Shown here: piece by piece, positions 13 through 38,007 of the stretch
Layout: each line of letters starts with the position of its first letter
How positions within the stretch are numbered: the first letter of the stretch is position 1
Origin: an uncultured virus (IMG/VR IMGVR_UViG_3300050821_004776)
Taxonomy: Duplodnaviria > Heunggongvirae > Uroviricota > Caudoviricetes
Direction: 5' to 3' (one strand)
Virus record (IMG/VR): IMGVR_UViG_3300050821_004776
DNA: 56,021 bases
Program-made: the position numbers and the translations under genes
Notes under the pieces: model-generated
What the model was told of the DNA's origin: nothing
Seen by the model: the letters and a program-made list of their open reading frames with translations, nothing else
The model's database searches: none

Positions 13-68
13 CCTCTCGTTTTGTGCCGCTGTTGGCGGGGGCAGTCCAGACTTACTCCCGATGGGCG
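13..68 (-). repeat. Intergenic start-associated repeat, copy 1 (variant A)
   Basis: CCTCTCG (GAGAGG RBS on minus strand) plus 45-bp core GTGCCGCTGTTGGCGGGGGCAGTCCAGACTTACTCCCGATGGGCG at 24-68; precedes an ATG at 5 that runs off the window. Confidence 0.95.
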
Positions 69-72
69 GTGG

Positions 73-246
73 CTAGCAGTGTGCTGCTGTGTACAGGTAG
101 ACCTGACCGTTGTCAGAGTAAGCGCATACTTGGATTTGTGCCGTGCGCGATGCCGGGCGGGGCATTGTGCGGCCTGTTAGCAACCCTGCCGCAAACATGA
201 GAAGAAACAGGCCGGCTAGCAGAGAGAGAAACATGATGCGGCTCAT
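73..246 (-). CDS. Small secreted or membrane protein (57 aa)
   Basis: Hand-translated MSRIMFLSLLAGLFLLMFAAGLLTG...; hydrophobic N-terminus; fills the gap between the 252 gene and repeat 1. Confidence 0.7.
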   Translation of the reverse strand: MSRIMFLSLLAGLFLLMFAAGLLTGRTMPRPASRTAQIQVCAYSDNGQVYLYTAAHC

Positions 247-251
247 GGCGG

Positions 252-527
252 TTACTTGCTAAGGGGAAGGTTCAGCCAGATTCCGGCGCGTTCCGCCATG
301 TCTCGCCGCGCGCGGTCAAACGCGCAATCGTCCGTGTCGGCGCGGAAGACAGGGAAGTAGCGGCCTGAATAGTAGGACGCATAGCGGTCATGGGCGTGCG
401 TTCGCCACGTGACGCAATTACCGGCAGGGTCCATTCCCATGACGACGTATTCGCCTACCGATACGGGGGTAGCCGCGATAATCTGATATCCGGCATTGTA
501 GGTATCGAGCTTGGGAGTGATCAGCAT
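252..527 (-). CDS. Hypothetical protein
   Basis: ORF track; GAGAGG RBS supplied by repeat 2. Confidence 0.85.
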   Translation of the reverse strand: MLITPKLDTYNAGYQIIAATPVSVGEYVVMGMDPAGNCVTWRTHAHDRYASYYSGRYFPVFRADTDDCAFDRARRDMAERAGIWLNLPLSK

Positions 528-535
528 TTCTGTAA

Positions 536-593
536 CCTCTCGTTTGGTGTGCCGCTGTTGGCGTTGGCAGTCTGGGCTTACCAGCGATGGGCG
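536..593 (-). repeat. Intergenic start-associated repeat, copy 2 (variant B)
   Basis: Core GTGCCGCTGTTGGCGTTGGCAGTCTGGGCTTACCAGCGATGGGCG at 549-593. Confidence 0.95.
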
Positions 594-597
594 GTGA

Positions 598-879
598 TCA
601 AGACGCGTTCGCGTGCAGTGCGTAGCTGTAAGCCGTTACGGCTTCGGCCATACGATCGGGCGCTAGCCGCGCTAGTTCCGCGAGGATACCAGCGGCACGC
701 GCTTCAATCTTTTTCGCCTCATTGGTCGCCGTCACCCAGTCTGCGGGAAGGTCGGCATCGGACGTACACGCCGCGCGCTTTGCGGCGTTGCGCCACGTTG
801 CCACGTGATAGCCATCCTCCTTTAGCGCGTGAATGGCCGCTTGGATCATGTCCGGCGTGAGCGGTATTCCGGTTTTCAT
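598..879 (-). CDS. Hypothetical protein
   Basis: ORF track; GGAG RBS, 4-bp overlap with upstream gene, stops just before repeat 2. Confidence 0.85.
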   Translation of the reverse strand: MKTGIPLTPDMIQAAIHALKEDGYHVATWRNAAKRAACTSDADLPADWVTATNEAKKIEARAAGILAELARLAPDRMAEAVTAYSYALHANAS

Positions 880-1112
880 GAGCGTGATTCTCCCGTATAT
901 TCCAGCAGGTGAGTAAGGCAGAGAAGGTAAGCCGCGTCGTCGGTATCCTCCGGTATGACATCACTGTCTGGGTCCAGGCACCACGGGCAATCCTCCCCGG
1001 CGGGGTTCTCGCCGCGCGTGGGGTCGTAAGGCACGGTCACGATATCGTCGCCGGTATCGGCTTGATAGCGCGCGTAACTGGCGTCGTCATACCACGCGTC
1101 CGTTCCTGGCAT
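876..1112 (-). CDS. Hypothetical protein with CPWC...CLTH possible Zn site
   Basis: ORF 876-1226 re-started at MPGTDAW (1112), directly after the 1117-1269 ORF. Confidence 0.7.
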   Translation of the reverse strand: MPGTDAWYDDASYARYQADTGDDIVTVPYDPTRGENPAGEDCPWCLDPDSDVIPEDTDDAAYLLCLTHLLEYTGESRS

Positions 1113-1116
1113 GTCG

Positions 1117-1269
1117 CTACTTCCCGCTCTCTTGCGGCGTGGCCTTGCGGACCATACGTCGGGTGGCGCGCTTGCGGACGGACCGCGCGCGGGGGTCTGG
1201 GTAGTCGTCATCGCGTTGCATCGCACGGTACAGCGCCGTGCGGCTGAATCGCGTAACCGGGGCAGTCAT
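1117..1269 (-). CDS. Small basic protein (50 aa)
   Basis: Hand-translated MTAPVTRFSRTALYRAMQRDDDYPDPRARSVRKR...; GGGAG RBS; tiles the gap. Confidence 0.65.
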   Translation of the reverse strand: MTAPVTRFSRTALYRAMQRDDDYPDPRARSVRKRATRRMVRKATPQESGK

Positions 1270-1284
1270 GGCGTCTAGTCTCCC

Positions 1285-1500
1285 TTACCTGACCGTAGGC
1301 ACGTAGCCTTGTGCGGCTAGTTCCGCACGCGTGAGCGGACCGGAGTAGCCGCGCCGGCGCGCGTTACGCTTGCGCGCTTCCATAGCCTTACGTTCGCTCT
1401 CTGCCCGTTCCGCTTGCTTGCGGGCATTGAGTTTGCCGATAACCGCTACGGGGTTATCGCGCGATACGAATTTGCCGTTGCCGGCCCGGTAGGCAGTCAT
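1285..1500 (-). CDS. Small basic hypothetical protein
   Basis: ORF track; RBS from repeat 3. Confidence 0.85.
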   Translation of the reverse strand: MTAYRAGNGKFVSRDNPVAVIGKLNARKQAERAESERKAMEARKRNARRRGYSGPLTRAELAAQGYVPTVR

Positions 1501-1507
1501 TGTGAAT

Positions 1508-1563
1508 CCTCTCGATTGGTGCCGCTGTTGGCGGGGGCAGTCCAGACTTACTCCCGATGGGCG
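1508..1563 (-). repeat. Intergenic start-associated repeat, copy 3 (variant A)
   Basis: Core 1519-1563 identical to copy 1. Confidence 0.95.
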
Positions 1564-1566
1564 ACC

Positions 1567-1764
1567 CTATTTGGCGTCTTTGTCCGCCCAGAGGCGGGTG
1601 ATCTCGGCAACGGTAGCCGCGTCTAGGGTGATGATAGCCTTTCGGCCTTTGACGCTAGCCGGACCGTCCGTGACCGTCGCCGCTACCATGACGCCTAGTT
1701 CGCCGGCGGTGGCGACGTGTGATCTCTCGGCATTGGCTACCCATATCATTCTGCTTACCGGCAT
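1567..1764 (-). CDS. Hypothetical protein
   Basis: ORF track; GAGGAG RBS; stops at repeat 3. Confidence 0.85.
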   Translation of the reverse strand: MPVSRMIWVANAERSHVATAGELGVMVAATVTDGPASVKGRKAIITLDAATVAEITRLWADKDAK

Positions 1765-1776
1765 GGCCGTGTCTCC

Positions 1777-2064
1777 TCAGATCAGGTTGCGGATGACGTT
1801 GTACAGGAACTGGTCACAGAACGGGAAAGGCGGGTTGACGAAATACGCCGTTACCTCGTATTCCACGTTCGGTGCGTTGGGCACGGTGTAACGCGCGGGA
1901 GTGTGCGTCTTTTCGCCGATAAGCGCGGCGTTCATTATGTCTATGACTTCATCGATTGTGAGTTTGAAGTCCGTCAGCCCGTGCGTCTGTGACAGCAGTT
2001 CAGTGCACGCGTCATTTAGGTTGACGCCCGCCGCTAGCACTTCGGTTGATCGGTAGATGCTCAT
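1777..2064 (-). CDS. Hypothetical protein
   Basis: ORF track; RBS from repeat 4. Confidence 0.85.
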   Translation of the reverse strand: MSIYRSTEVLAAGVNLNDACTELLSQTHGLTDFKLTIDEVIDIMNAALIGEKTHTPARYTVPNAPNVEYEVTAYFVNPPFPFCDQFLYNVIRNLI

Positions 2065-2073
2065 TTTGGATTA

Positions 2074-2128
2074 CCTCTCGTTTGTGCCGCTGTTGGCGTT
2101 GGCAGTCTGGGCTTACCAGCGATAGGCA
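2074..2128 (-). repeat. Intergenic start-associated repeat, copy 4 (variant B)
   Basis: Core 2084-2128; two differences from copy 2 at the distal end. Confidence 0.95.
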
Positions 2129-2138
2129 GACACTCGCT

Positions 2139-2411
2139 CTAGGCGACGGTAACGACCGTAAGGTCAAAGACGTTGGCGTAGTATTCTTGCGTGTATTCGG
2201 ACGGTTTGCCGTCATCCCATGTGACGCACACCCTTGCAGTGCCGTTGTACTCCGGTCCGCGCGTCACCAGGTCAAAGGTCGCGACGTCGCCGCGAAAGTC
2301 CGTGACAGTGCTTCCCCGCGTGATGACGTTGCCGTCCGCGTCCGTGACGCGGTATTCCGGCCGTCTCGGCATGGGCGTGGTAAGTCTCACTATGCGCGCG
2401 TTCCTGGTCAT
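2139..2411 (-). CDS. Hypothetical protein
   Basis: ORF track; RBS from repeat 5. Confidence 0.85.
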   Translation of the reverse strand: MTRNARIVRLTTPMPRRPEYRVTDADGNVITRGSTVTDFRGDVATFDLVTRGPEYNGTARVCVTWDDGKPSEYTQEYYANVFDLTVVTVA

Positions 2412-2419
2412 TCGCGAAT

Positions 2420-2474
2420 CCTCTCGTTTGTGCCGCTGTTGGCGTTGGCAGTCTGGGCTTACCAGCGATGGGCG
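2420..2474 (-). repeat. Intergenic start-associated repeat, copy 5 (variant B)
   Basis: Core 2430-2474 identical to copy 2. Confidence 0.95.
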
Positions 2475-3308: not shown

Positions 3309-3326
3309 TTGATACCTCCGTTTACA

Positions 3327-3667
3327 GGCTACGGCTTACGCGTTATCGCGGTAGCACCGTAGCCAGTCTGCAAGGGCCGGAATTGAGGCTTATGAGGAGA
3401 GATAGCGCGGGGCATAGCGCAACGGAGCGTTACCCGTGGCTTATATCACTCATGCGACGTTCAATCCCGGCCCTTAGGGGATTCGGTGGGGTCTAAACCC
3501 ATTGCCTGTGTCCGTAGTCCGGACGGGCGATTAGGTGGTTACCGTAAGCGCTAGGCGCACGTGCTGTTGTTGTATACCTAACTGAATAGGTTTCCAAGCA
3601 CGTCAAGCGCGGAAAGTGACCGGTTAAATCGTCCGTCCGAATGTCACACGTCTATTGCCGAATCCTT
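3327..3667 (+). ncRNA. Putative structured RNA or ssDNA domain 1
   Basis: Helices 3327-34/3357-64, 3372-86/3461-75, 3479-86/3658-65, 3520-32/3627-39, 3559-65/3597-3603; wobbles mostly G.T on the plus strand; no ORF. Confidence 0.5.
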
Positions 3668-3815
3668 AAAGCAAAATGACTGTTTCAGTTAACGTCCGAA
3701 ACTTTCAAAAGTGACGATTTGAATTGGCTATTTCAGTGAAACATCTTCTGACTACCGGGTTGCCAGTCCGGTAATTACTCTGGCCTGTTATACGGCGTGT
3801 AGCCGTATCGAGATA

Positions 3816-3922
3816 CGTACACAACTCCGATTGATCGCTATTCGCGTCCACAACTCGGATTGATCGTTACCGCGTACACAACTCGGATTGATCGCTTTCG
3901 CGTACACAACTCCGATTGATCG
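3816..3922. repeat. 4 x 22-bp direct repeat, period 28-29 (iteron- or operator-like)
   Basis: CGT(A/C)CACAACTC(C/G)GATTGATCG at 3816, 3845, 3873, 3901. Confidence 0.95.
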
Positions 3923-3933
3923 TCGGCTTATCT

Positions 3934-4315
3934 CTAGGGTCCAAAGGTCAGTGTGTCCGACTCCTGAAACAGAGGCGACTCATTACGAGGTTAGTCGCGT
4001 ACCCCATGATGGTGTGTGCAGTATCGCCGGCAGTAGCTATACACTCTCACGTTACCCGCACTAACCGCTTTCCCTAGGTGGGTGGCAACTGGAATAAACC
4101 TGCCTATTTGAACACCTAGGTAATCGCGGTAGCTATACGCGGATGATAATCAGTCGGTCAAAGTATGCGCCTAGGCGCGGTCCGTACAGATTATCGCTGT
4201 AACGCTACCCTTCGCTACGCGTTGCCTTACATCATGCACGCGCAATCATGTCAATGTAATGCACTAGCGGCGATACGCGGTTGAGGCGATTAAGGTTCAG
4301 ACCGGTAGACCCTAG
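3934..4315 (+). ncRNA. Putative structured RNA or ssDNA domain 2
   Basis: Closed by CTAGGGTC 3934-41/GACCCTAG 4308-15; inner helices 4021-29/4268-76 and 4073-80/4113-20. Confidence 0.45.
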
Positions 4316-4737
4316 GACCTACCCATTCCCCATCTTGCGTAACGAGACGCTAGCGGCTAAACCGCAAGCATTGCCGACCACACCTAGCACAAGACACGCG
4401 CATCGGTTGCGACATGCCAGGCGACGTTCCGCCCGGCGGCCGGTCGGGTAATTGAAGTTGTAAGGCCAACCGTACACCAGGTGCACCATGTTGGATGTAA
4501 CGAGTTGATAACGACCGTTGACACTGTGTCTGACCTGCGAAAATGCGGCCGTTCGGTAGCTGACCAGGTGATTTGGTGTGTAGCGAGGTAACGCCCAACG
4601 CCGTCTGTACGGTCCGGAGCGCCACGCTGCGGACCGTACTCGGGAGAGATCGGGCACGGACACGCGCGCGGTATTGAGCCGCTTAGAATCGTTCTCTAAA
4701 TTACTAGCCGGTAGGCAAGTTACCGTTCCGTGACATA

Positions 4738-4812
4738 GGGCCACCAGGCCACCAGGTCGGGGCCACCAGGTCGGGGCCACCAGGTCGGGGCCACCAGGCC
4801 ACCAGGTCGGGG
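4738..4812. repeat. Tandem 14-bp repeat CCACCAGGTCGGGG with partial units
   Basis: About 4 full and 2 truncated units, read directly. Confidence 0.9.
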
Positions 4813-4821
4813 TACGCAAAA

Positions 4822-4857
4822 GCGCCGGCCCTTGGGATCGATCCCAAGGGCCGGCGC
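4822..4857. repeat. 36-bp perfect palindrome (possible minus-strand terminator)
   Basis: GCGCCGGCCCTTGGGATC/GATCCCAAGGGCCGGCGC, preceded by AAAA. Confidence 0.9.
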
Positions 4858-5524
4858 GGGCGGTGGCTAGCGCGCGTCTGCGCGTGCTGTAAACCCGTAG
4901 TTGTCCAGACCGTCACGTTCGGGCGGGTAGACGTCCAATTCGTATCCACGGTCTAGCAGGTCATTCGCGCGCGTGAGTGCGACTGAGAAGTCGGCATCGC
5001 TGAAAACGATCACCTTGTGGCCTAGAATCGACATGATCTTGAATCCTTCCGTATCGGTGCGCGGGTTGTGCTGGCACCGATCCTAGTCGGCGCGCCAAAT
5101 CCGGTCTACATTACTGGCAAGTTACCCGCATAATTCGCATTTGTCCGGTTTGCCCGGGTTTGCGGGGATATATGGTATCCGGCTGCTGACGTTTTCGCAG
5201 GTCAGCACCCAATACCCTCTGTACGGTCCGGAGAGCGATTCTCAGGCACTCAACCCGGTTCTGGGTAGCGGATGACCCTATCGGCATTCTGTCAATTTCG
5301 TAGCATTTGTCCGGTTTGTGTATTCGCGCAGGTCACAGGGCTGAACCTACAGGCATGTACTAGCATGTACAGGTATAGTGTAAGGGGCTTCGCTAGATTG
5401 TTCTAATCGTACGGTTGACCAGCGGATACGCGGTATGTAGGTAATGCCGACCGTATAGGTGTGGTTTGCTTGCAATACGGACATTCCGGACATCGGCCAT
5501 ATTCGTTACTTAGGCTAACTAACT

Positions 5525-5656
5525 ACTATGGTTAGCTAGGCTAACGACTATGGTTAGCTAGGCTAACGACTATGGTTAGCTAGGCTAACTACTATGGTTA
5601 GCTAGGCTAACTACTATGGTTAGCTAGGCTAACTACTATGGTTAGCTAGGCTAACT
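5525..5656. repeat. 6 x 22-bp tandem repeat with internal palindrome
   Basis: ACTATGGTTAGCTAGGCTAAC(G/T); contains GTTAGC-TAG-GCTAAC. Confidence 0.95.
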
Positions 5657-5808
5657 ACTGACGGTCGTATGGTCTAGACCACTACTGCGGACATACCTCG
5701 CATACCAGCACATATCAGGACATACCGGACACGCGGACCGCCGACCTGCGCAGTGTCACGCTATATGCTGACATAGTGTGGAATGTCCGTTATGTCATGA
5801 CATTGTGC

Positions 5809-5864
5809 GACATTCCCACCATGGCATGACATTCCCACCATGGCATGACATTCCCACCATGGCA
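5809..5864. repeat. 3 x 19-bp tandem repeat
   Basis: GACATTCCCACCATGGCAT at 5809, 5828, 5847. Confidence 0.95.
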
Positions 5865-5939
5865 CGCTATGTACCATTAAAGGATGGTATAATACGATAT
5901 GTCCGATATTTACCATTAAAGCACCATTAAAGACGATTT

Positions 5940-6090
5940 ATCGTACTATGTCATAATTTAGGGTGATTTTTTATGACATTCCCACGCAGGACGTCCTGCT
6001 GACTCAATTCCCTCCCCGGGTCGGATTACCCAAGAGACGAACGCGTGTTCGAGTCTCGAAAAGCGCCGCTGACCTGCGAAAACGTCTGTT
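5940..6090. other. Probable genome terminus or cos region
   Basis: Boundary between the AT-richer repeat zone and the rightward HNH/terminase arm; GGGGTGATTTTTT...TTCCCTCCCCG resembles siphovirus left ends (inference). Confidence 0.35.
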
Positions 6091-7112: not shown

Positions 7113-7538
7113 ATGGGAGAGTGTGCGGAGGACGGCTGCCCGGAGTTCCGGTTCGATCAGGACGCGGCGCTGCGCGAAGGCTGGCAACAGGTCGGTGACC
7201 AGGTGTTCTGCCCCTGTCACGGCCCGATCAGGGCGATGCAGGCCCGCCGGAAGGCCCGTTTTGCCGAGTTCCGGCGCAAAATCGAGGCAAACCGGGCTGA
7301 GCTGGGCAAAGAAGACGCGCGGGGCCTCGAAGCGTTCGAGATCCTGCTCGACGCACGCGAAACCTGCGGGCCTCGTGATGAGGGGATGCGCCTGGAGCTA
7401 TCGCGGCAGATCGCGCGCATCCGGCAGGGTTTCCGCAGCTCGAAGGCCGGCCGGCTCGCTGACGAGCGCATGCGGGAGCTGGAATTCGCCCGGAAGCGCG
7501 CTGCCGCCCGGGAAAAGCACGCGCGCGGTATCCTTTAA
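7113..7538 (+). CDS. Hypothetical protein
   Basis: ORF track; TAGAAT-N6-ATG. Confidence 0.8.
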   Translation: MGECAEDGCPEFRFDQDAALREGWQQVGDQVFCPCHGPIRAMQARRKARFAEFRRKIEANRAELGKEDARGLEAFEILLDARETCGPRDEGMRLELSRQIARIRQGFRSSKAGRLADERMRELEFARKRAAAREKHARGIL

Positions 7539-14417: not shown

Positions 14418-14711
14418 ATGACACGACGGCAGCGGAACCCTATTGGGACGAAGCTGATGAGCCTGGATAAGGAACCAGGCCGGGTAACTGTCACGCCTAT
14501 TGAGGGCGATCCGGAGTGGTGGGGCTACTGGGTCGCCTATGTGGGTGATGTGCGGGTGAACGGCGGCCTGTGCAAGACCAAGTGGCAGGGCCGGGACCGG
14601 GCTCGCGCGGCTATCTCTAATTACCGGGCCAAGAGGTGGGTCCAGACGCATATCTGGGACGTCGAGACCTTCGCGTGGCTGGACAAGAGAGAGCTGCCCG
14701 ACCAGGACTAG
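14418..14711 (+). CDS. Hypothetical protein
   Basis: GGAGG RBS. Confidence 0.75.
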   Translation: MTRRQRNPIGTKLMSLDKEPGRVTVTPIEGDPEWWGYWVAYVGDVRVNGGLCKTKWQGRDRARAAISNYRAKRWVQTHIWDVETFAWLDKRELPDQD

Positions 14712-14720
14712 ACTGCCTGT

Positions 14721-16400
14721 GTGACCACCCCGCGCGTAGAGCGCATCGAGCTGCCAGACGGCACGTTCATGGAAGGGCCGCTGCTCGGCAGCCAGATGCC
14801 CCGCCTGTATAAGCTGCCCGACCGGCATACTGAGCGCGTTCCCGACTGCCCCATGTGCGAGCTTGAGGGCGCAGAAGGGCACGGTCACGGCTGCGGGGAG
14901 CATATAGCCGAAGAGGCCCTGGAATGGGCCAAGGGGTTCGGCTACGACCTGGACCCCTGGCAGCAGTGGTGCATCAGGCACATGATGAGCCGCAAGCCGA
15001 ACGGCAAATGGGCTGCGCGGAACAACGTGCTCATCGTTCCCAGGCAGAACGGCAAGGGCACCATCCTGGAGGTCCGGGAACTGGTCGGGCTCTTCCTGCT
15101 GGAAGAAGAGCTGATCATCCACACCTCGCACCAGCTCAAGACCAGCCTTAACCACCTGCTGCGGCTCAAGACCGTAATCCAGGAATACCCGGTGCTGGAC
15201 CGGAAAGTCAGCAATATCCGTGAGGGCAACGGCAAGGAAGCCATTATCCTCAAGCCGAAGAAAATCCTGATCATGGGCTCGGACAGCAAGTACGTAACCC
15301 GGCGGCGATCCTCCAAGCTCGAATTCCATGCCCGGTCCGGCTCGGCCACTTCCCGTGGTTTCTCCTGTGACTTCCTGGTCTATGACGAGGCTATGATCCT
15401 GAGCGATGAGCAGGTCGGCGCGTCGCTGCCCACCATGTCCGCCCGGCCCAACCCGCAGATCGCCTATACCGCTTCCGCTGCCCTGGAAGACGAGACGGTC
15501 TCGGTGCAGCTCGCCAAGATGCGCCTGAACATGCGCAAGGGACGCCCTAACCTGTTCGGTGCCGAATGGTCTGTCAACCCGCACGACGAGGGCTGTGCGC
15601 GGGACGAGGCCAAGGGCCGGAAGTCGAACTACTTCATCACCTGCCCGAAGCACGATGACCGCGATGATCCCCGCGCCTGGGCTCGGGCCAACCCGGCGAT
15701 GGGCTACAGGATCAGCCTGGAGTTCACGCAGGACGAACTCGACAACATGCCCGACCGGAAGTTCGACATCGAGCGGCTGGGCATCGGCAACTGGCCCTCG
15801 GACGAAGAACCCTGGATTACGATCAGCCAGCCGGCCTGGAAGGTGCTCGTTAACGAGGACCCCGGTTTCCCCACTCCGCCCGTGGTATTCGCTTTCGACG
15901 TGGCCGAGGACGGCGAGTCCGCCACCATCGCGTGCGCCTGGGAGCACAAGCAGAAGCGCATCGTCCTGGAGATTCCCCCGGACGGCTCCCGCCAGGGAAC
16001 AAAATGGGTGATCGGCCGGTTGGACAAGGCGTACAAGAAATGGCGGCCCCTGGCCATCGCCGTGCCGAAGTCCGGTCCCGGGGCAGGGCTGCTTGACGAT
16101 GCCGTACGGAAGTGGGGAGACCGTGTCTACCCTGTCGGGCCTGGCGAGGAGGCAGCCGCGTTCGCGTTCTTCATGCAGCAGGTCAAGGACAAGCGCCTGT
16201 GGCACTTCGGCGAGGAGAAGGCCGCGACGCTCTGGCACGCTGTCGGCCGCGCTGATACCCGCGTGGTCGGAGACGGCGGCAAGGCGTGGTGCCGGCGTGA
16301 CAGCGAATCGGATATCTCGCCCATCACCGCCGCCACTCTCGCGGCATACGTCCTCAACAAGAAGCGCAGGAACTACGACCTGACCAATACGGTGGCTTAA
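14721..16400 (+). CDS. terL: Terminase large subunit
   Basis: Walker A PRQNGKG, Walker B LVYDEA, ANPAMG, nuclease FAFDV...DISPITAATLA. Confidence 0.95.
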   Translation: MTTPRVERIELPDGTFMEGPLLGSQMPRLYKLPDRHTERVPDCPMCELEGAEGHGHGCGEHIAEEALEWAKGFGYDLDPWQQWCIRHMMSRKPNGKWAARNNVLIVPRQNGKGTILEVRELVGLFLLEEELIIHTSHQLKTSLNHLLRLKTVIQEYPVLDRKVSNIREGNGKEAIILKPKKILIMGSDSKYVTRRRSSKLEFHARSGSATSRGFSCDFLVYDEAMILSDEQVGASLPTMSARPNPQIAYTASAALEDETVSVQLAKMRLNMRKGRPNLFGAEWSVNPHDEGCARDEAKGRKSNYFITCPKHDDRDDPRAWARANPAMGYRISLEFTQDELDNMPDRKFDIERLGIGNWPSDEEPWITISQPAWKVLVNEDPGFPTPPVVFAFDVAEDGESATIACAWEHKQKRIVLEIPPDGSRQGTKWVIGRLDKAYKKWRPLAIAVPKSGPGAGLLDDAVRKWGDRVYPVGPGEEAAAFAFFMQQVKDKRLWHFGEEKAATLWHAVGRADTRVVGDGGKAWCRRDSESDISPITAATLAAYVLNKKRRNYDLTNTVA

Positions 16401-16641: not shown

Positions 16642-17228
16642 TGGGCATAAGGCCCGCGCTATTCAATGACATTCCCGGTGACGTGCACGCCAGTAACCAG
16701 GAACTCGTTTACCGCTGGTGCGTGGCGAAGGGCTGGTACGACGAGCCGGTCCCGTTCCTTTCGGCTATGGCCCTCCTGGTCAGCGAGATCGCCGAGATCG
16801 CGGAGGACTACGGCAGGGAAGGACTTCTCGGCGGCTGGCAGGCAAGGCCGCACACGGCGTCAGAGTTCGCTGACTGCTACATCAGGCTCCTGGACTACTG
16901 TGAGCGCTACGGTATTGCCCTGGCAAAAGCCCGGGACATCTACCAGCACACGTATGTTCAGCCGGCAATCGGCTCGATGGACCGGGCGTGCATGTGCCTG
17001 GTACAGCTCGTCGTGAAGGCCATGGAGGCATACCGGGTGCACGGTCTTGTGTCCATCGGCGAGGCCAAGTTCGCGGCTGGCGCGGAGATCGCCAAGTGCC
17101 TTGCCCGCTTCTACATCCAGCTCCAGCACACATGCGACTTCTACGGCGTGGACCTGGCCAAGGAATTCGACAAGAAAATGGCCGTCAACTGGCAGCGGCC
17201 CTACCGGCACGGGAACAAGCATGCCTGA
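16641..17228 (+). CDS. mazG: MazG-like nucleotide pyrophosphohydrolase
   Basis: LLVSEIAEIAE...SEFADCYIRLLD...KKMAVNWQRPYRHG. Confidence 0.85.
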   Translation: MGIRPALFNDIPGDVHASNQELVYRWCVAKGWYDEPVPFLSAMALLVSEIAEIAEDYGREGLLGGWQARPHTASEFADCYIRLLDYCERYGIALAKARDIYQHTYVQPAIGSMDRACMCLVQLVVKAMEAYRVHGLVSIGEAKFAAGAEIAKCLARFYIQLQHTCDFYGVDLAKEFDKKMAVNWQRPYRHGNKHA

Positions 17229-17385
17229 CCCCTGGTGCCCTTGCGGCCACGGTCCTGATGACATCTGCCTCAACGGGCTGATCTACGAATCGTGCGGCGC
17301 GGACGTGTGCGAGGGCGCGTGCGCGGACACCGGCAGGTGCCAGGGGCTGCCCGGCTGCTGTAGTGAAAGGAGCAAGAAGGCGTGA
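17221..17385 (+). CDS. Small Cys-rich protein
   Basis: MPDPWCPCGHG...; tiles between neighbours. Confidence 0.55.
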   Translation: MPDPWCPCGHGPDDICLNGLIYESCGADVCEGACADTGRCQGLPGCCSERSKKA

Positions 17386-18008: not shown

Positions 18009-20786
18009 GTGGGTCTGCGCGAGGACATCAGGGCCTCTGCCGTAGAGCAGCGTGTCATCGGCGGCGTCCCCTGGGTTCCGTGGAATTCCCCGCTGTGGCG
18101 GTTCGATTCCGGCGGCCCTGTGCATCCTTCGCGGATGGTCACCGGCCCGGACACGGCTCTCGCTCTGCCCGCGCTGTACGCCGGGGTGAAGCTCCTCGCC
18201 GACAACGCCGCGTCGATGCCCCTGCGCGTCTACCTTCAGCAGATGGGCCGCGACGGCTATCCCGGCAAGCGCCTGTGGACCGGGCCGTCCATTTTCGACC
18301 AGCCGAGCGTCATCGGGACTACGTTCCACTGGATCAACTCCCTCATGGTCTCCGTGCTGCTACAGGGCAACGCCTGGGGCTGGATCACCGGCCGCGACAA
18401 TTACGGCTACCCGACTGGCATCGAGTGGATTCCGCCGCAGGATGTCTACGTCGATGAGCACGAGAACCAGCAGTCCTGGAACCCGCTGCGATCCCGGGTA
18501 TTCGTGTTCGGCCGCGAGGTCCGCTGGTTCGGTCCTGACGCCGAGGTGTTCCACATCGTCGGCCTGCCCATGCCCGGACGGATCGAGGGCATCTCCCCGC
18601 TCCGCCAGTTCGCGCTCACCATCACCGCCGGCACTGAGGCCCAGCGTTACGGCACCGACTGGTACGCCAGCGGCGGCTTCCCGCCAGGGACCTTCCAGAA
18701 CGCCGAGATCGAGGTGGACGCCGACCAGGCCGCGCACATGCGCGCTGAGCTGGTCAGGTCCCTGCGCCGCCGCGAGCCCCTGGTCTACGGGCGTGACTGG
18801 GACTACAAGCCGGTCACGGTCCCGCCGTCCGAGGCGCAGTTCCTGGATGCCATGCAGATGAACGCCACGCACGTCGCGGCCATCCTGAACCTCCCTCCGG
18901 ACCGCATCGGCGGCACCCGGGGCGATTCTTTGACCTACAACTGCGTGGACGCCGATACCGAGATCCTGACCACGCGCGGCTGGCTGCGCCACGATCAGGT
19001 GACTAGCCAGGACACAGCCCTGACCCTCAACACGGATACCGGCTCGGCCGAATGGCAGCCAGTCCAGTCTGTTCATGTATTCGATGAAGGACCGTACCCG
19101 GTGACCCGCTGGGAAAGCCAGAGCCACTCTTCTGTCTCCACCCCGAACCATCGCTGGCCGGTGATGATCAAGGGCCGGAAGAACAGTTCACGTACGGGTT
19201 ATCGCTGGCTGACTACGGAAACCGCGCCTACCGACTCGCATATCGCCGCTGCCGCGCCGGTTGTTCCGCCGGCTGAGGCGAAGTGGTCAGACGCGCTCGT
19301 TGAGCTGGTCGCCTGGTTCTGGACCGAGGGCTGGCATAACGCATACGGCAGTGTATCGATCGCGCAGTCAGATAGCGTGAATCCGCAGAACGTCATCCGC
19401 ATCAGGCAGGCGCTCACTGAAGTATTCGGGCCATCCGGCGCGCTTCAGGTTCGTGCTGTCCCGTCCTGGCGCGAAGATCCTGGTGACAACGCCGTGCACT
19501 TCCGGCTGAATGCCAAGGCCGGACGCCAGCTCCTCGCCCATGCTCCGGGCAAGGTCGTGACGACGGAATTCCTCAGCCAGCTCACCCGGGCGCAACTGGA
19601 ACTGTTCTACCAGACATCGATTGATGCGGATGGCACACGACGTCCCGGTGACACAGGCGATGTGATGGTGCAGAAGGACCGGGCGCGGCTGGACGCCTTC
19701 CAGATCGCGGCGGCCCTGACGGGGCGGGCTGGTGTCGTCTGCGGGCCGAACAGCCGGGGCATGTATCACATGAGCGTGAAGGTTATGCCATGGGTGAAGC
19801 CAAAGGGGCATGCCCAGTACATCTCGGCTGAGACCACGGATCTTGTCTGGTGCGTCCAGACCCCGAACAAGAGCTGGTTCGCGCGCAGGAACGGCACTTG
19901 CTATTTCACCGGGAATACCACGGAACAATCCACTCTCCAGATCATTGAAGCGCTGCGGCCATGGCTCGTCAACATGGAACAGTCGTTCTCGCAATTCCTG
20001 CTGCCGCGCAACCGCATGTCGAAATTCTTCACTGACGCGCTCCTGAAGACCGACATGGAAGCGCGCATGACGATGTACCAGATTCAGCGGAACATCGGCC
20101 TGCGGACCGTGAATGAACTGCGTGATCTCGAAGACCTGCCCCCCATTGCCGGTGATATCGGGAATGAAGTACTCCCGCTTACCACCATGAATGCCATGGG
20201 CACCCGCGCCGGCGTTATCCCCAAGTCGTTCATGAAGGCCGTGGTCCTGGAAATGGACGTCGCGACCGACCGCCTGATCAAGCTGGAGAAGTACATCATC
20301 CCCCAGCTCACCGCGCAGGGCTACAACGTCCAGGCTGAGCCTCCGGCTCCGGCTGGCGGGGGGAGTTCAGGGTCCGGCAGCACCTTCGCGAATACGCCAG
20401 TAGGCGGATCGGGCCGTGCCAACGGCGGGTTCGGGGTTCCGCCCGGCAATACCTACGGGCAGGGCCAGCCGCTTACCGAGACGGTCGGCGGGCGCACGGG
20501 AACTCCCATCGGGCGGCCTAACCAGCCGCTGCCCCTGGCGCAGGACCCCGCGAGCTTCCTGGCGTCGCTGATCTCGGTCCAGCGCAATGCGGACCTGCCG
20601 TACGAGGTGCGGCTGGCCTCCCAGGAACTCCTGCTTGAGATCGCGGAAAAGCAGGCGCAGATCGCTGAGCACGAACCGGACCTGGACATTCCCGACCACC
20701 ACCTGTACGCGCCTTTCGTGCCGGGCCGCGCGGACGTCCGGGACATGGTTATGAGCACCAACGGAAAGGGAAGGGGACACCTCTGA
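18009..20786 (+). CDS. HK97-family portal protein, intein-interrupted
   Basis: VLLQGNAWG, GISPL, SEAQFLDAMQMNATHVAAILNLPP, LRTVNELRDLEDLPP. Confidence 0.95.
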   Translation: MGLREDIRASAVEQRVIGGVPWVPWNSPLWRFDSGGPVHPSRMVTGPDTALALPALYAGVKLLADNAASMPLRVYLQQMGRDGYPGKRLWTGPSIFDQPSVIGTTFHWINSLMVSVLLQGNAWGWITGRDNYGYPTGIEWIPPQDVYVDEHENQQSWNPLRSRVFVFGREVRWFGPDAEVFHIVGLPMPGRIEGISPLRQFALTITAGTEAQRYGTDWYASGGFPPGTFQNAEIEVDADQAAHMRAELVRSLRRREPLVYGRDWDYKPVTVPPSEAQFLDAMQMNATHVAAILNLPPDRIGGTRGDSLTYNCVDADTEILTTRGWLRHDQVTSQDTALTLNTDTGSAEWQPVQSVHVFDEGPYPVTRWESQSHSSVSTPNHRWPVMIKGRKNSSRTGYRWLTTETAPTDSHIAAAAPVVPPAEAKWSDALVELVAWFWTEGWHNAYGSVSIAQSDSVNPQNVIRIRQALTEVFGPSGALQVRAVPSWREDPGDNAVHFRLNAKAGRQLLAHAPGKVVTTEFLSQLTRAQLELFYQTSIDADGTRRPGDTGDVMVQKDRARLDAFQIAAALTGRAGVVCGPNSRGMYHMSVKVMPWVKPKGHAQYISAETTDLVWCVQTPNKSWFARRNGTCYFTGNTTEQSTLQIIEALRPWLVNMEQSFSQFLLPRNRMSKFFTDALLKTDMEARMTMYQIQRNIGLRTVNELRDLEDLPPIAGDIGNEVLPLTTMNAMGTRAGVIPKSFMKAVVLEMDVATDRLIKLEKYIIPQLTAQGYNVQAEPPAPAGGGSSGSGSTFANTPVGGSGRANGGFGVPPGNTYGQGQPLTETVGGRTGTPIGRPNQPLPLAQDPASFLASLISVQRNADLPYEVRLASQELLLEIAEKQAQIAEHEPDLDIPDHHLYAPFVPGRADVRDMVMSTNGKGRGHL
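18942..19916 (+). mobile_element. Intein (325 aa) with LAGLIDADG-like endonuclease remnant
   Basis: N|CVDADTEILT...TPNHRW...WCVQTPNKSWFARRNGTCYFTGN|T; AWFWTEG and SIDADG motifs. Confidence 0.92.
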
Positions 20787-28038: not shown

Positions 28039-28146
28039 GTGAGGATCTACCTTGACCGGCGTGACTGGTGGGTCGGCTACTACCGTGGCCCGGACTACCA
28101 CTACGTTTGCCTCATTCCTACCCTGGTCATCAGGTGGCCGCGATGA
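28039..28146 (+). CDS. Small protein (35 aa)
   Basis: MRIYLDRRDWWVGYYRG...; TAGGCT-N7-GTG; ATGA overlap with the next GT. Confidence 0.6.
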   Translation: MRIYLDRRDWWVGYYRGPDYHYVCLIPTLVIRWPR

Positions 28147-29207
28147 AAATCTACGGCTCGCATGATGGCGGCTCAGGCTGTGCGTATTACCGCATGCTGC
28201 TGCCCTTGCGGACGGTGGACAAGCACTCCCCTGACGTCAGCGTGAAGTTCTTCTGCGGCGGCCCCAAGTCGATGAGGGAAACTCATCCGCCGCTGATGCC
28301 AGAGGACGCGGCTGAGGCCGATGTGCTCGTCATCCAGCGGGCCACCGCGTTCAGCGGGCTCGGTGTCTGGCGGCGCTGGGGAACTCCGGACAAGCGCACC
28401 GTCTATGAGAACGACGACGACATCTGGAACATCACGCACGAGAACAAGCAGGCGTACGAGGTCTACAAGCAGGGCACTGAGGTCCGCGAGGCCGTCCTGC
28501 GGTACACGGCCACCAGCAACATGGTCACCACGTCCTCGCCTCACCTCGGGGACTGGCACCGTGAACTCACGCCGCACGTGCCCGTCGTGGTCCTGCCGAA
28601 TTACATCCCTGAGTACGTGCTCGGCATGCCGCATGATGACCGCAAGGGCCGGCTCCGGATCGGCTGGTCAGGCGGCGCGTCGCACGCCCGGGACATCCAC
28701 GCGGCCACGGGCGCGGTCCGGCGCTTCTGCCGCCGCTTCCCGGCCTGGGACCTGTACATCGGCGGCGTGGATTACCGCAGCTCGTTCAAGGTGCCGGAGG
28801 ACCGCTCGTTCCACGTCCCCTGGATACACATCTCCGACGACGAGGATGTCTTCTACCGGGCCATCGACTACGACATCGGCATCTGCCCGCTGCTGGACAC
28901 CAAGTTCAGCCGGTCCAAGACCCCCATCAAGGCCCTGGAGTACATGGCCCGGGGAATCCCCGTGGTAGCCAGCGACGTCGAGCCCTACCGGCGGTTCATC
29001 ACCCACGGCAGCGACGGCTTCCTGGTCAGGCACGAGCACGAGTGGCTCCGCTACCTGTCTGAGCTTGCAGGGAGCACGGACCTGAGGCATAAGATGGGCG
29101 CGGCGGCTAAGGAGACCGCCCGGCAGAACACGATCGAGGGGCACTGGCAGGAATGGGCAAGTGCGTACAAGATGCTCTTTCCCGCCGGATGGGAGTTCAA
29201 GGGATGA
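28143..29207 (+). CDS. GT-B (GT4-like) glycosyltransferase
   Basis: GCAYYRM, YENDDD, RIGWSGG, DIGICPL...SKTPIKALEYMARGIPVVASD. Confidence 0.9.
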   Translation: MKIYGSHDGGSGCAYYRMLLPLRTVDKHSPDVSVKFFCGGPKSMRETHPPLMPEDAAEADVLVIQRATAFSGLGVWRRWGTPDKRTVYENDDDIWNITHENKQAYEVYKQGTEVREAVLRYTATSNMVTTSSPHLGDWHRELTPHVPVVVLPNYIPEYVLGMPHDDRKGRLRIGWSGGASHARDIHAATGAVRRFCRRFPAWDLYIGGVDYRSSFKVPEDRSFHVPWIHISDDEDVFYRAIDYDIGICPLLDTKFSRSKTPIKALEYMARGIPVVASDVEPYRRFITHGSDGFLVRHEHEWLRYLSELAGSTDLRHKMGAAAKETARQNTIEGHWQEWASAYKMLFPAGWEFKG

Positions 29208-29539
29208 CAGACGAGAATCCGGTAGACCGGGTGACCGGGAAACCGCGCCTGATGGGCGGGCAGTGCGCTACCTGCATCGGCCGTCCCGGCAACCCTATGG
29301 ACTTGCGTTCCGGTCGCGTACGGCAGATGACGCGTGACGCGTGCCAGGGCGATACCCAGGGCATTATCTGCCATGAGACGCTGAGTTACGGAGGGCACCC
29401 CGAGCACGGCGGTCCCGCCTTCTGCCGGTGGTTCTACGACACATTCGGGTACCAGAACAACTACTTCCGCATTGTCGAGCGGCTTGGCGGATTCACCGAA
29501 GTGAGGACAGATGACAAATCCGTTTTACACGGCGGGTAA
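29204..29539 (+). CDS. Hypothetical Cys/His protein
   Basis: ATGA overlap; CATC, CHET, FCR. Confidence 0.7.
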   Translation: MTDENPVDRVTGKPRLMGGQCATCIGRPGNPMDLRSGRVRQMTRDACQGDTQGIICHETLSYGGHPEHGGPAFCRWFYDTFGYQNNYFRIVERLGGFTEVRTDDKSVLHGG

Positions 29540-30425
29540 TACCGGTAACGACGGGCTGCCCGGCACTGAGTTCCTGACGGAATACACCCGGCGGCAGATC
29601 CGGCTCCACCCCGAGAAATTCGGGTACGCGGGCAGCTTCGCCCGGGAGATGCTCAGCGTCGCTACCGCAGATGACCTGATGTACGGGTACGACCAGATGG
29701 TCGTCCGGCTCATGACGACGATCCTGTCCGGGCGCACGATCAGCGAGGAGCCCGAAGTCGCCCTGAAGCTCCCGGCTACCTGGTGGCAGCACCTCAAGCA
29801 CGCCCTGTTCACCAGCGCCCTGTTCGCCAATGCGGCGTCGTTCCGGCTCCGGAGCCAGCCTAAGCTTGCGGTCATCTGGCTCTGGCCGGTGCTCACCGCC
29901 TGTGTCCTGCTGAGCCGCTGGTACAGGAAGCATCCGGTCCGCTGGACGGAAGTCACGGCCAGAGTCCATTTCAGCCAGCACGTGCTCTACCCCGAGATCG
30001 ACGCTCCCGCGCAGTGCGGCCGGCCGGTCATCTACGAGGAGATCAGCGCGAGTTTCCCCGGCGCTCCGTTCGGCAGCAGCCTGGCGGGCGACCCGTCCCG
30101 GTTCCTGAACCGGCATGAGATCGCGAACCAGGTCTACCGGGACTGGGATCAGCCGCACGGTTCGTGGCCTGACGGCGGGACGCTCACCCCGGAAACGACG
30201 CTGCGCTGGCTTGAGGAGCACGGCGTCAATGTCGATCAGCTCGTGAAGAGGCGCGGCCTGTTATGGAGCCGGCGATCAGCGTGTTCCTGCCCAGCTACAA
30301 CAAGGGCGAATGGGTGCTCGACGCCATGCGCTCGGTGTTCGGTCAGTCCCGGGCAGACTGGGAGCTGTGGCTCCTGGAGAACTCCAGCGACGGCCGGACT
30401 AACCTCATCGTTGAAGATGAGCTGA
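29511..30425 (+). CDS. Hypothetical protein (one TM segment)
   Basis: GAGGA RBS; 3' end overlaps next gene by 163 bp. Confidence 0.65.
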   Translation: MTNPFYTAGNTGNDGLPGTEFLTEYTRRQIRLHPEKFGYAGSFAREMLSVATADDLMYGYDQMVVRLMTTILSGRTISEEPEVALKLPATWWQHLKHALFTSALFANAASFRLRSQPKLAVIWLWPVLTACVLLSRWYRKHPVRWTEVTARVHFSQHVLYPEIDAPAQCGRPVIYEEISASFPGAPFGSSLAGDPSRFLNRHEIANQVYRDWDQPHGSWPDGGTLTPETTLRWLEEHGVNVDQLVKRRGLLWSRRSACSCPATTRANGCSTPCARCSVSPGQTGSCGSWRTPATAGLTSSLKMS

Positions 30426-31036
30426 CCAGGCACTTCGGCTTGCAGGAGCTGGACGGGGACGAATGGCTGGCCGCCCTGAAAGAGAACGGCGTGCATTACG
30501 AGCGCCTGGAGGGCGCGGAAATCGAACGCAAGCGCCGCGAGACGTACATGACCTCCTGGCTCCTGAACGTGTACTACCCCGAGGCCAGCGGGAAGTACGT
30601 CTTCTACATCTCCGACGACGACATCATCGACCCGGACTGTTTCGAGGTCATGGCCGGAGAGCTGGACGCCAATCCCGAGTACCGGATCGTTTATGCGGGC
30701 CTGCGGCATTACACGCCGTCCGCGCCGGGTGATTGCGGCCCCGCTCCTGACAAGGGCATCCCGGCGCTCGATCCGAAGATGTTCCCCGGCAGCGTGGATA
30801 ACCGCGTGGACGGCGGCCAGGTCATGCACTGGAAAGCCTGCCTGGACCACCTGGTCTACCCGTATTTTGAGGAGGGCGGTTCAGGCACGGTGTCCCGGCA
30901 CGTGGACGGCATCTTCCTGGAGCGCCTGGTCGGGCGGTTCCCGTTCTGGCCCATCAACCGTTACCTCGTCACACACCGCTGGACTGAGCTGTCTGTCTGG
31001 TCATCGAAACCTCCTGACACCGAGATGTGGAGGTAG
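30263..31036 (+). CDS. GT2-family (GT-A) glycosyltransferase
   Basis: ISVFLPSYN...SVFGQS...GKYVFYISDDD. Confidence 0.9.
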   Translation: MEPAISVFLPSYNKGEWVLDAMRSVFGQSRADWELWLLENSSDGRTNLIVEDELTRHFGLQELDGDEWLAALKENGVHYERLEGAEIERKRRETYMTSWLLNVYYPEASGKYVFYISDDDIIDPDCFEVMAGELDANPEYRIVYAGLRHYTPSAPGDCGPAPDKGIPALDPKMFPGSVDNRVDGGQVMHWKACLDHLVYPYFEEGGSGTVSRHVDGIFLERLVGRFPFWPINRYLVTHRWTELSVWSSKPPDTEMWR

Positions 31037-31038
31037 CC

Positions 31039-31494
31039 GTGGAACTCCGCAAGATCACCGAGCATGATGCGCCCTATCTTGTGAACTGGCGTAACAGCAA
31101 CGCGGAGTTCTTTCCGCCGGGGCCTCCGCTCACCCTGGAATCGCACCGGTCGTGGTATCAGGGCTACCTGCGCGACCCTCAGGACCACATGTACATGGTC
31201 TGCGCACCCGGGCTGGTAGGCACCGTGGCCATCCACCTGGGGGACCGCGAGATCGGCAGGGTGATGCGCGGGCCGGTGCACGGCGAGAAGGGGGCCATGA
31301 GCAAGGCGCTGCTGGAACTGATGCGGATCTACGGCTTCGGGTCGTACATCCTGCGCGTGCTGGAAGGCAACGAGCACGCTATAGAGTTCTACCGGCGGCT
31401 CGGATTCAGCACTGAGGGGCGTATCGTCCACTACAGCGTCCCGTGCCTGATCATGCACAAGTCGATGAAAAGGAGTCCTCATGAGCGTCACTGA
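31039..31494 (+). CDS. GNAT N-acetyltransferase (PseH-like)
   Basis: LVNWRN...LESHRSWY...LRVLEGNEHAIEFYRRLGF. Confidence 0.85.
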   Translation: MELRKITEHDAPYLVNWRNSNAEFFPPGPPLTLESHRSWYQGYLRDPQDHMYMVCAPGLVGTVAIHLGDREIGRVMRGPVHGEKGAMSKALLELMRIYGFGSYILRVLEGNEHAIEFYRRLGFSTEGRIVHYSVPCLIMHKSMKRSPHERH

Positions 31495-31553
31495 CAACGT
31501 GGAGATCGGCGGAACGGTCACCTACTCCATTCGCGTTACGAAGTACCTCTGAC

Positions 31554-32099
31554 ATGCACCTTCCGTGGCGGGACCTCACTTTGCCCCTCGGCCCGGGTGC
31601 CGGTCCGGGGATTTCCACGTCACTACTGCGGGAAGAGGCCGGTGAACTCGCCCGCCTGGCCGCAGGTGCCCGTGTGCTTGAGGTAGGCGCGGCTTACGGC
31701 TTCTCCACCATCGCCATGGCCCAGACCGCCCGGCATATCGTCTCTGTCGATCTTCCCGCAGGATGGGTATGCAGTCAGAGCGCCCTGGTTTCCGGACTCA
31801 GTGCGTATCGCGTGCTTGACGCAGTCACAGTGCTGGGAGGCTCATCATTCCAGGTACTCCCGTCACTGGCGGAGAGCGGCGAGAAGTTCGGGCTGGTCTT
31901 TATCGACGGTGATCACGCGTATGACTCCGTCACGCAAGATGCCCGGAATGCCTGGGCGCTCCTGGACGAAGACGGTGTCCTGGCCTGTCACGATTACCTG
32001 GAGACGTGCTGCTGCACAGATGTCAAGCCGGCGCTCGATACCCTGTTCCCCGAAGGCCCGGCTTATACCCTCGGCTCAATGGCGGTGTACAAGAAGTGA
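31554..32099 (+). CDS. SAM-dependent methyltransferase (Methyltransf_24-like)
   Basis: VLEVGAAYGFST...FIDGDHAYDSV...HDY. Confidence 0.9.
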   Translation: MHLPWRDLTLPLGPGAGPGISTSLLREEAGELARLAAGARVLEVGAAYGFSTIAMAQTARHIVSVDLPAGWVCSQSALVSGLSAYRVLDAVTVLGGSSFQVLPSLAESGEKFGLVFIDGDHAYDSVTQDARNAWALLDEDGVLACHDYLETCCCTDVKPALDTLFPEGPAYTLGSMAVYKK

Positions 32100-32932
32100 A
32101 AGTCCTGGTAACCGGCAGCAGTGGCTTCATCGGCTCCGCAGTCTGCAATTCCCTGTCCGCTCGCGGGCATAAGATCGTTCCTTATGATCTGCCGCGCTGT
32201 GACGTCAGGGACGGAGACGCCCTTAGCGCCGAAATGCGCATCGCCCAGCCGGACGCGATCATCAACCTCGCCGGGATGCTCGGAACCCCTGAGCTGTTCG
32301 GGCACGAGGCTAAAGCCGCTGCGGTCAACGTCATCGGGGCCGTCAATGTCTACGATGCAGCAGCCCTGGCAGGTATTCCCGTAGTGCAGATCGGCACCGG
32401 ACACAAAGGCCAGCCGAATCCCTACGCCGTCACCAAGGGCTGCGCGGAAGACCTCGGCCTGTGCCGGGCACAGTTCTGCGGCGAGAAGATCGCCATCGTC
32501 CGCGCCTACCACGTCTACGGGCCTCGCCAGCCGGTCGGGCCGCCGTTCGGCACCGCCAGCGTGCACAAGTTTTTCCCGACGTTCGCTACCCGCGCTATCA
32601 GCGGCCTGTACCTGGAGCTGTGCGGCGGCGGCACGCAGATCATCGATCCGGTGTACGTGGACGATGTCGCTGATGTGCTAGTGAATGCTATCGACGGTCC
32701 GTACGGCACAGTGATCGAGGCGGGGACCGGGGAAGCTGTCAGTGTCGCCCAGGTAGCTGCCGATATCCGGGATGCGGCCGGAGCGGAAGTCCTGATTACC
32801 TCGGCAGCCAGCCGTGACGGGGAACCCGCCGGAGCTATCGTCCGGGCATCGCATCCGCAGTGTGTTAATCTCTGGCCTTATAAGGTCCCCGAAACAGTGG
32901 AGTGGTACAGGCAATGGCTGAGCAACCGGTGA
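32096..32932 (+). CDS. NAD-dependent epimerase/dehydratase
   Basis: VLVTGSSGFIGS, NPYAVTK, VYGPRQ. Confidence 0.9.
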   Translation: MKVLVTGSSGFIGSAVCNSLSARGHKIVPYDLPRCDVRDGDALSAEMRIAQPDAIINLAGMLGTPELFGHEAKAAAVNVIGAVNVYDAAALAGIPVVQIGTGHKGQPNPYAVTKGCAEDLGLCRAQFCGEKIAIVRAYHVYGPRQPVGPPFGTASVHKFFPTFATRAISGLYLELCGGGTQIIDPVYVDDVADVLVNAIDGPYGTVIEAGTGEAVSVAQVAADIRDAAGAEVLITSAASRDGEPAGAIVRASHPQCVNLWPYKVPETVEWYRQWLSNR

Positions 32933-35767: not shown

Positions 35768-35769
35768 CA

Positions 35770-37427: not shown

Positions 37428-37502
37428 CGCCGTCGCGCACATGATCTGCCATAACTGCGGGCGCTTGGACCCTGACCCGGGCAGCGACTGCGTCAGCGAA
37501 GA

Positions 37503-38003: not shown

Positions 38004-38007
38004 AGGC

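Follow-up and report, generated by a model that had tools for sequence, protein, structure and literature searches.

The DNA analysed here (the window, 56,021 nucleotides) corresponds to positions 62001-118021 of the 118,021-nucleotide (nt) virus record IMGVR_UViG_3300050821_004776, referred to below as G000, which is classed as carrying direct terminal repeats. At the left end of the window lies an arm of small genes in which a 45-nt element, the core, recurs at 24, 549, 1519, 2084 and 2430. The five copies had been noticed in an initial annotation made from the letters alone, and all were recovered, against an expectation of 0 from 100 shuffles. No sixth core exists in the whole 118,021-nt genome, where a tail gene holds one unrelated chance match (27/45). 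The genes and their GAGAGG ribosome-binding sites (RBS) are all on the minus strand, which makes the plus strand the template. As first described, each core stands between a stop codon and the next GAGAGG in 5/5 copies, starting 3-10 nt past the stop codon and ending 4-7 nt ahead of GAGAGG on the minus strand, and the cores split the arm into units of 1-4 genes, namely 1, 2, 4 and 2 open reading frames (ORFs). Two variants, A and B, follow each other along the direction of transcription in the order B, B' (copy 2084), A, B, A, and the last core (24) stands ahead of some 16 more small genes. The features of this region are as follows.

2430..2474, minus strand: core, variant B, leader of ORF 2411-2139; the first copy transcribed.
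2139..2411, minus strand: single-ORF unit (90 amino acids, aa), with a weak match to PHROG 35924.
2084..2128, minus strand: core, variant B with two private changes (core positions 41 and 45), leader of ORF 2064-1777.
1567..2064, minus strand: two-ORF unit (95 and 65 aa).
1519..1563, minus strand: core, variant A, leader of ORF 1500-1285.
598..1500, minus strand: four-ORF unit (71, 50, 78 and 93 aa).
549..593, minus strand: core, variant B, leader of ORF 527-252.
73..527, minus strand: two-ORF unit, 527-252 (91 aa) and 246-73 (57 aa, hydrophobic).
24..68, minus strand: core, variant A, leader of a gene whose start lies at window position 5 and which exits to the left (G000 62005-61667).
13-18, 536-541, 1508-1513, 2074-2079 and 2420-2425, minus strand: GAGAGG RBS.

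None of the 13 arm ORFs scanned in the window could be functionally annotated, with one weak match to an unnamed PHROG; ORFs 527-252 and 246-73 match neither Pfam nor PHROG, and no clear RBS is visible for the latter. In two sequencing runs, a possible source of the G000 DNA, the 45-nt piece assembled at roughly double the depth of its flanks (18.9 vs 9.6 and 11.8 vs 6.4), and therefore the repeat is present in the reads. The gene units between the cores have similar depth in both runs, and no strain variant of the core was seen in the contigs of the sequencing runs.

Variants A and B differ at 8 positions (core 16, 17, 25, 26, 28, 34, 35 and 36), and all 8 fall within a hairpin, H1, of 25 nt and 9 base pairs (bp). 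A second hairpin, H2, overlaps it, so that the two are mutually exclusive. In copy 24 these elements are placed as follows.

37..61, plus strand: hairpin H1, with 6 bp, a 1x2 internal loop, 3 bp and a 4-nt loop.
25..44, either strand: hairpin H2, an invariant Watson-Crick stem.
24..38, no strand assigned: 15-nt block identical in 5/5 copies; the inferred exchange interval, between the variable hairpin and the RBS.

H2 ends 6-9 nt ahead of the RBS, and the A/B changes at core 16-17 land in its bulge. The initial annotation had assigned six of the differences to the stem and two to the loop, and this distribution holds: the six lie inside four stem pairs that stay paired on the plus strand. Two of these pairs change on both sides (core 16/36 and 17/35) and two on one side only. 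The private changes of copy 2084 at core 41 and 45 convert T.G to T-A in a looser outer stem, again on the plus strand. Over all copies, 70/70 pair cells on this strand are standard (Watson-Crick or G.T), in a structure derived from the same sequences. H1 is thus fully paired on the template strand and carries 1-2 A.C oppositions on the mRNA strand, one in A and two in B. As RNA of the plus strand it is the best fold of both variants (-8.5 kcal/mol in A, -7.1 in B); the isolated mRNA-strand hairpin reaches -7.3 (A) and -4.2 (B) kcal/mol, and with DNA parameters H1 is weak on both strands, reaching -3.4 kcal/mol on the template strand in A and giving way to a better fold in B.

To evaluate this pattern, A and B were compared with three shuffle nulls of 1500 shuffles each, taking the better strand. 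A hairpin as good as the observed one arose in 4, 6 and 6 of 1500 shuffles under the three nulls, six variable columns inside a stem of at least 6 bp in 11, 16 and 9, and the RNAalifold covariance term was reached in 31, 35 and 79; an earlier, cruder version of the shuffle had given 1/1500. The p values for H1 consequently range from 0.003 to 0.05 over the three nulls, for a statistic picked after seeing the data and resting on a single independent contrast (A vs B). The covariation signal in H1 is therefore real but modest. The suggestion that the structure is under selection is modestly supported (4-6/1500 for the hairpin, 31-79/1500 for covariance). The loop change from CCAG to CTGG is an exact inversion, which template switching can produce without selection.

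The copies also bear signs of exchange among themselves. The 8 nt that follow the RBS are common to A24 and B2084, and 4 nt are common to A1519 and B2430, so that all four combinations of core type and post-RBS spacer are present. Among 435 pairs formed by 30 other RBS spacers of the arm, 2 share at least 8 nt and 6 share at least 4 nt. Since core type and spacer each span several bases, the likely cause is that copies have undergone exchange or gene conversion within or close to the invariant 15-nt block. This four-way mosaic concerns the core copies and says nothing on the movement of genes. One contig, at depth 2.2 in run X4, joins 1518 to 24 across the whole core, with all 45 letters shared; it was considered as an excised circle and given no weight, as assembly from short words could make the same chimera.

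Outside this phage, no homolog of the core was found in viral, metagenome or genome contigs, in cultured phages or in relatives, and therefore only one independent contrast is available. Exact core patterns returned at least 121 stretches from 11 of the 64 parts of the viral contigs, none above 29/45 to the core, and further pattern searches of viral contigs gave 3 loci of one contig and 24 loci, 3 of them from the same phage. Metagenome contigs yielded 38 loci, 3 from the same phage and the others single matches of at most 31/45, genome contigs one chance match, and cultured phages none. A covariance model of the five copies, as the initial annotation had advised, reached best E-values of 0.29 in 350 kb of arms and 0.1 in 5 whole relatives. 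No Rfam family matched the cores with E values up to 5 admitted. No sigma-70-like -35/-10 promoter was found at the cores and no -10-type hexamer inside any of them, the single such hexamer lying in the flank of copy 1519, outside the core; no terminator-like match was found at the cores either. The genome yielded no phage sigma factor, and no RNA polymerase was recognised in Pfam/PHROG scans of most predicted proteins, a PF00940 search having been run without a working control. An antisense partner elsewhere in the genome was also considered and discarded, as no exact complement is longer than 12 nt.

The relatives of G000 were covered by 16 stretches taken from 10 related records, together with 6 loci that surround homologs of a single arm gene (L132-L137); L220 derives from G004, L221-L222 from G005 and L226 from G009. 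The closest record, 99.96% identical, is the only one found besides G000 that bears the core. In several of the others the same slot is taken by different repeats. L220 holds 21 short palindromes and L221-L222 hold 12, most of them directly ahead of an arm-gene RBS, with TGCC/GGCA arms as in H2 but a variable 4-nt centre. Some of these palindromes are nested inside another element, motif F, and they resemble the cluster O and EG repeats. Three-way-junction leaders occur in 6 copies in L226 and 4 in L132; they show covariation, and their U.G pairs are on the mRNA strand. Upstream of those in L132, at about 4965-4995, the conserved 3' part of the junction occurs once more as its reverse complement. 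L136 has repeated promoter-like boxes. In the stretches of G002, G003, G008 and G010, which may not be the right arm, no such repeat was seen. Motif F is an intergenic hairpin on the mRNA strand, with a conserved base (an internal loop and an A.C opposition) and a freely exchanged inner hairpin, and is present in G001, G004, G005, G006, G007 and G009. The positions in relatives are as follows.

L226:4344-11554 and L132:5300-6604: three-way-junction leaders, unrelated to each other.
L218:9160-9212, plus strand: motif F.
L220:7964-8023, 15099-15158, 15889-15946 and 17172-17232, minus strand: motif F.
L221:9228-9285, L222:17085-17144, L223:15610-15666 and L227:15687-15743, minus strand: motif F.
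L226:3376-3460, 5846-5929 and 7338-7421, plus strand: motif F.

At E <=0.002 the model of motif F found 13 matches, of which 9 had served to train it. In the 13-row alignment, 5/10 counted pairs change on both sides, a strong covariation, and the A.C opposition is kept in 13/13. Motif F has no Rfam match and, as a potential new structured RNA, is more promising than the 45-nt core. Rfam showed nothing relevant on L220, L221, L226, L132-L135 or L137. The internal loop and 3' strand of H1 resemble the base of motif F, which lies on the opposite strand. The core was nonetheless rejected as a homolog, since motif F is not detected in G000 and its model misses the core.

Comparison of gene content was another of the initial proposals. 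Arm genes turn up again in relatives, but in a different order and under different leaders: the 71-aa gene (ORF 1500-1285) has a 57% homolog in G001 without any repeat leader, and ORF 2411-2139 has a 56% homolog in L132, preceded by that locus's own three-way-junction repeat. Among close relatives, in which gain or loss of genes at a core would show, only the 99.96% identical record was found. The family thus habitually keeps the slot but changes what fills it.

Among described systems, the PeSL elements of T4-type phages are similar in several respects (PMC2839356, PMC4122927): both are multi-copy stem-loops forming an intergenic module from stop codon to Shine-Dalgarno sequence or start, ahead of orphan genes of small size that occupy a variable region. 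PeSLs likewise include copies made chimeric by inter-module recombination, as the cores suggest from their sequence; gene loss and mini-circles at the modules are further PeSL features. The cores differ in lacking sigma-70 -35/-10 boxes, an AT-rich upstream tract and a stable terminator-like hairpin (z about 0 to +1), and in numbering 5 copies against about 50. The element is therefore not a PeSL, as the promoter and terminator features of that class are absent. The SAS/ESAS repeats of cluster K mycobacteriophages and the EF/EG repeats of Microbacterium phages also come from phages of actinobacteria, the likely hosts of G000. They share with the cores a length of about 45-50 nt, an imperfect inverted repeat directly before a conserved RBS, small non-structural genes and a single orientation, and their function is called unclear (PMC3203893, PMC11373665, PMC7302621 and PMC4351075). 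The cores show no sequence likeness to them and have neither the 17-bp imperfect inverted repeats with variable spacer nor the SigA-like hexamers of SAS/ESAS; the core arms are 4-9 bp, of fixed length, in two variants with paired changes. A literature search on actinophages found no description of a repeated stem-loop element with covariation. The core is best read as an undescribed, single-phage case of a known type of start-associated phage repeat (PeSL/ESAS-like), the odd features being its template-strand pairing and its internal signs of recombination.

As to how it acts, the most likely of the explanations considered, which we hold tentatively, is that the repeat is a lineage-specific mRNA leader with an imperfect, protein-read hairpin. 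Such a leader would occupy the gap from the stop codon to the next RBS and act in early mRNA, the arm being presumably expressed early, where a phage or host protein may read the hairpin and so set the stability or translation of the following gene unit. The mRNA would be the working strand, with A.C juxtapositions tolerated; H1 and H2 may alternate, H2 lying beside the RBS, and copies would exchange by homologous recombination or gene conversion inside the 15-nt invariant block. We favour an mRNA leader because of the position of the cores, the lack of promoter boxes and of a sigma factor, and the folding of the relatives' structured leaders on the mRNA strand. The tight stop-core-RBS-start layout in 5/5 copies and the survival of H1 through all 8 changes also support it, as do the folding energies that isolated H1 still reaches on the mRNA strand, the A.C opposition kept in motif F and the four-way mosaic. 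Several observations count against it. Neither strand of the cores folds more stably than its shuffles (z 0.19 to 1.06), and RNAalifold assigns a covariance of 1.5 to the template strand vs 0 to the mRNA strand. The five wobble-type changes all give G.T on the template, which corresponds to A.C on the mRNA. The A.C occupies a different pair in A than in B, and therefore is no fixed determinant. In context, the mean pair probability of H1 is 0.06-0.43 on the mRNA strand vs 0.01-0.92 on the template. The run of about 16 genes to the left carries no copy, and the absence of core homologs outside this phage counts here as well. By itself the variation would favour the template strand as the working strand.

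This last pattern is accounted for best by the main rival, a template-strand DNA hairpin, extruded or single-stranded during entry or transcription and read by a protein as a hairpin promoter or structural operator, which we consider possible but unlikely. The variable pairs are standard only on that strand, the private changes of copy 2084 included (70/70 cells), and the resemblance to the base of motif F, seen in the internal loop and 3' strand of H1, adds to it, the shared mini-motif (a C/TA internal loop), chosen after the fact, occurring in 18/3571 overlapping arm 45-mers. Against this stand the weakness of H1 with DNA parameters, the opposite strand of motif F and the failure of its model to hit the core; moreover, if transitions dominate, three to five wobbles on one strand have by simple arithmetic a probability of 0.25 to 0.06. 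The virion RNA polymerase of phage N4 uses hairpin promoters, with which the cores share a hairpin best formed on the template strand; loop and stem differ, the capsid of G000 is of HK97 type, and the scans of G000 recognised no such polymerase. The hairpin promoter proposed in the initial annotation thus finds no support from a phage sigma factor or from a -10 hexamer in any core. A more elaborate version seems doubtful to us: the template-strand hairpin, sharing its C/TA loop with motif F, would let a protein start or gate early-gene expression in a phage without a recognised RNA polymerase or sigma factor of its own, and would double as a joint for unit exchange. RNase III sites, another role proposed at the outset, lie between the early genes of T7 and in SPO1, and the cores likewise separate genes in a region that is polycistronic and presumably early; the T7 sites are not near-identical repeats. 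The fit is poor, as the mRNA stem has 9 positions with 1-2 A.C, and a classical site is unlikely because this is below the double-stranded minimum of 22 nt stated in the relevant passage of PMC5371410.

An ESAS-type operator in duplex DNA, whose invariant block and inverted TGCC/GGCA arms would bind a phage regulator while the hairpin variation is a by-product, is somewhat less probable than a template-strand hairpin. It is in line with the same-armed palindromes of G004 (21) and G005 (12), mostly before an RBS, with the small helix-turn-helix candidates (weak Pfam matches) encoded by G000, and with the proposal in PMC11373665 that ESAS are regulator sites. The arms are, however, 12 nt apart in the core vs 4 nt in the relatives, the 1x2 asymmetry and two-sided changes suit a fold more than a symmetric operator, and ESAS have SigA-like boxes that the cores lack. 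About as improbable as the motif F version above is the absence of any structural function, an RBS-bearing leader having been copied and homogenised by recombination, with paired changes arising through quasi-palindrome template switching. The exact loop inversion, the new perfect 4-bp stem made by B's changed loop and right arm, the shuffle-like stability and the single contrast all agree with it, but inversion cannot produce pairs that change on both sides, as core 16/36 and 17/35 do, 45 nt are kept though an RBS needs about 6, and relatives keep structured leaders with many-fold covariation. Transcription of the plus strand, with the hairpin working in an antisense RNA, would agree with H1 being the best plus-strand RNA fold of both variants; it is improbable, with no suitably placed consensus promoter, no terminator at the cores, and an orientation and spacing tied to the minus-strand RBS. 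Least credible of all is an integron-like cassette array with the cores as site-specific recombination sites, despite the imperfect strand-specific hairpin with unpaired bases and the unrelated small genes that make up the units. Neither a core nor an inverse core of attC type occurs on either strand of 5/5 copies, the element is only 45 nt, units can hold several genes, the depth is even across units, and the complete genome has no match to tyrosine recombinases (PF00589, whose control rang in 14/14 genomes), serine recombinases/resolvases (PF00239) or Y1 transposases (PF01797), for which the controls also worked. The idea of recombination sites thus survives as homologous exchange, in view of the four-way mosaic, and not as site-specific cassette joining.

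The wider genome places the arm in a soil phage, all metagenomes that hold it being from soil. Its host would be actinobacterial, judging from the GC content of 57-68% and the gene content. Genes for terminase, portal, protease and an HK97-type capsid lie on the plus strand of the window, and the half of the genome outside it encodes DNA polymerase A, a primase-polymerase, an SNF2 helicase, Ku, a LysM transglycosylase and a Cas12f-like nuclease with a six-repeat array. The capsid protein is at best about 28% identical to those of cultured phages and matches 65 IMG/VR loci at 34-100% identity, relatives at 55-79% existing only among uncultured soil phages. The CRISPR locus (L123:10704-12640, G000 30.7-32.6 kb) comprises the nuclease, the array and a tracr-like region, and a separate single-guide-like copy of the scaffold lies at L122:14545-14690. 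A tie between core and CRISPR locus was rejected, as the spacers do not match the core; likeness to the tracr-like or single-guide scaffolds fared no better, ranking 38th-3737th of 4608 windows, and the core model missed them.

Further features were observed along the genome. A low-GC, mostly noncoding stretch at window 3310-6040 separates divergent arms and is likely a genome-end or origin region. It contains tandem repeats (28-nt x4 at 3812-3923, 14-nt at 4747-4820, 22-nt x7 at 5497-5694 and 19-nt x3 at 5809-5865) and a perfect 36-nt palindrome at 4822-4857. A noncoding motif of 24-40 nt where the arm begins (window 3404-3443), 90-96% conserved in G001, G007 and G009, is a candidate early promoter or packaging/entry signal. 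Inside the head module, genes for a glycosyltransferase, sugar epimerase, aminotransferase and acetyltransferase (window 28068-38529), with a gene carrying an ion-channel domain at 47028-47807, possibly serve virion glycosylation. The portal ORF (925 aa, window 18009-20786), matched in two stretches, and an exonuclease at L123:7254-9173 with intein/LAGLIDADG matches probably carry inteins. In the left part of the arm, an 84-nt direct repeat of 96% identity occurs at L124:14318-14401 and 14560-14643, 242 nt apart.

The core itself is limited in reach, being known from a single phage in two variants and with no cultured host. The start-associated repeats of actinophages (SAS, ESAS, cluster O and EG) have been described for more than a decade while their function has stayed unsettled. 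Here a family of soil phages fills one slot with different repeats in each lineage, several of them truly covarying, and these therefore offer a comparative handle on whether such repeats act as RNA or as DNA.

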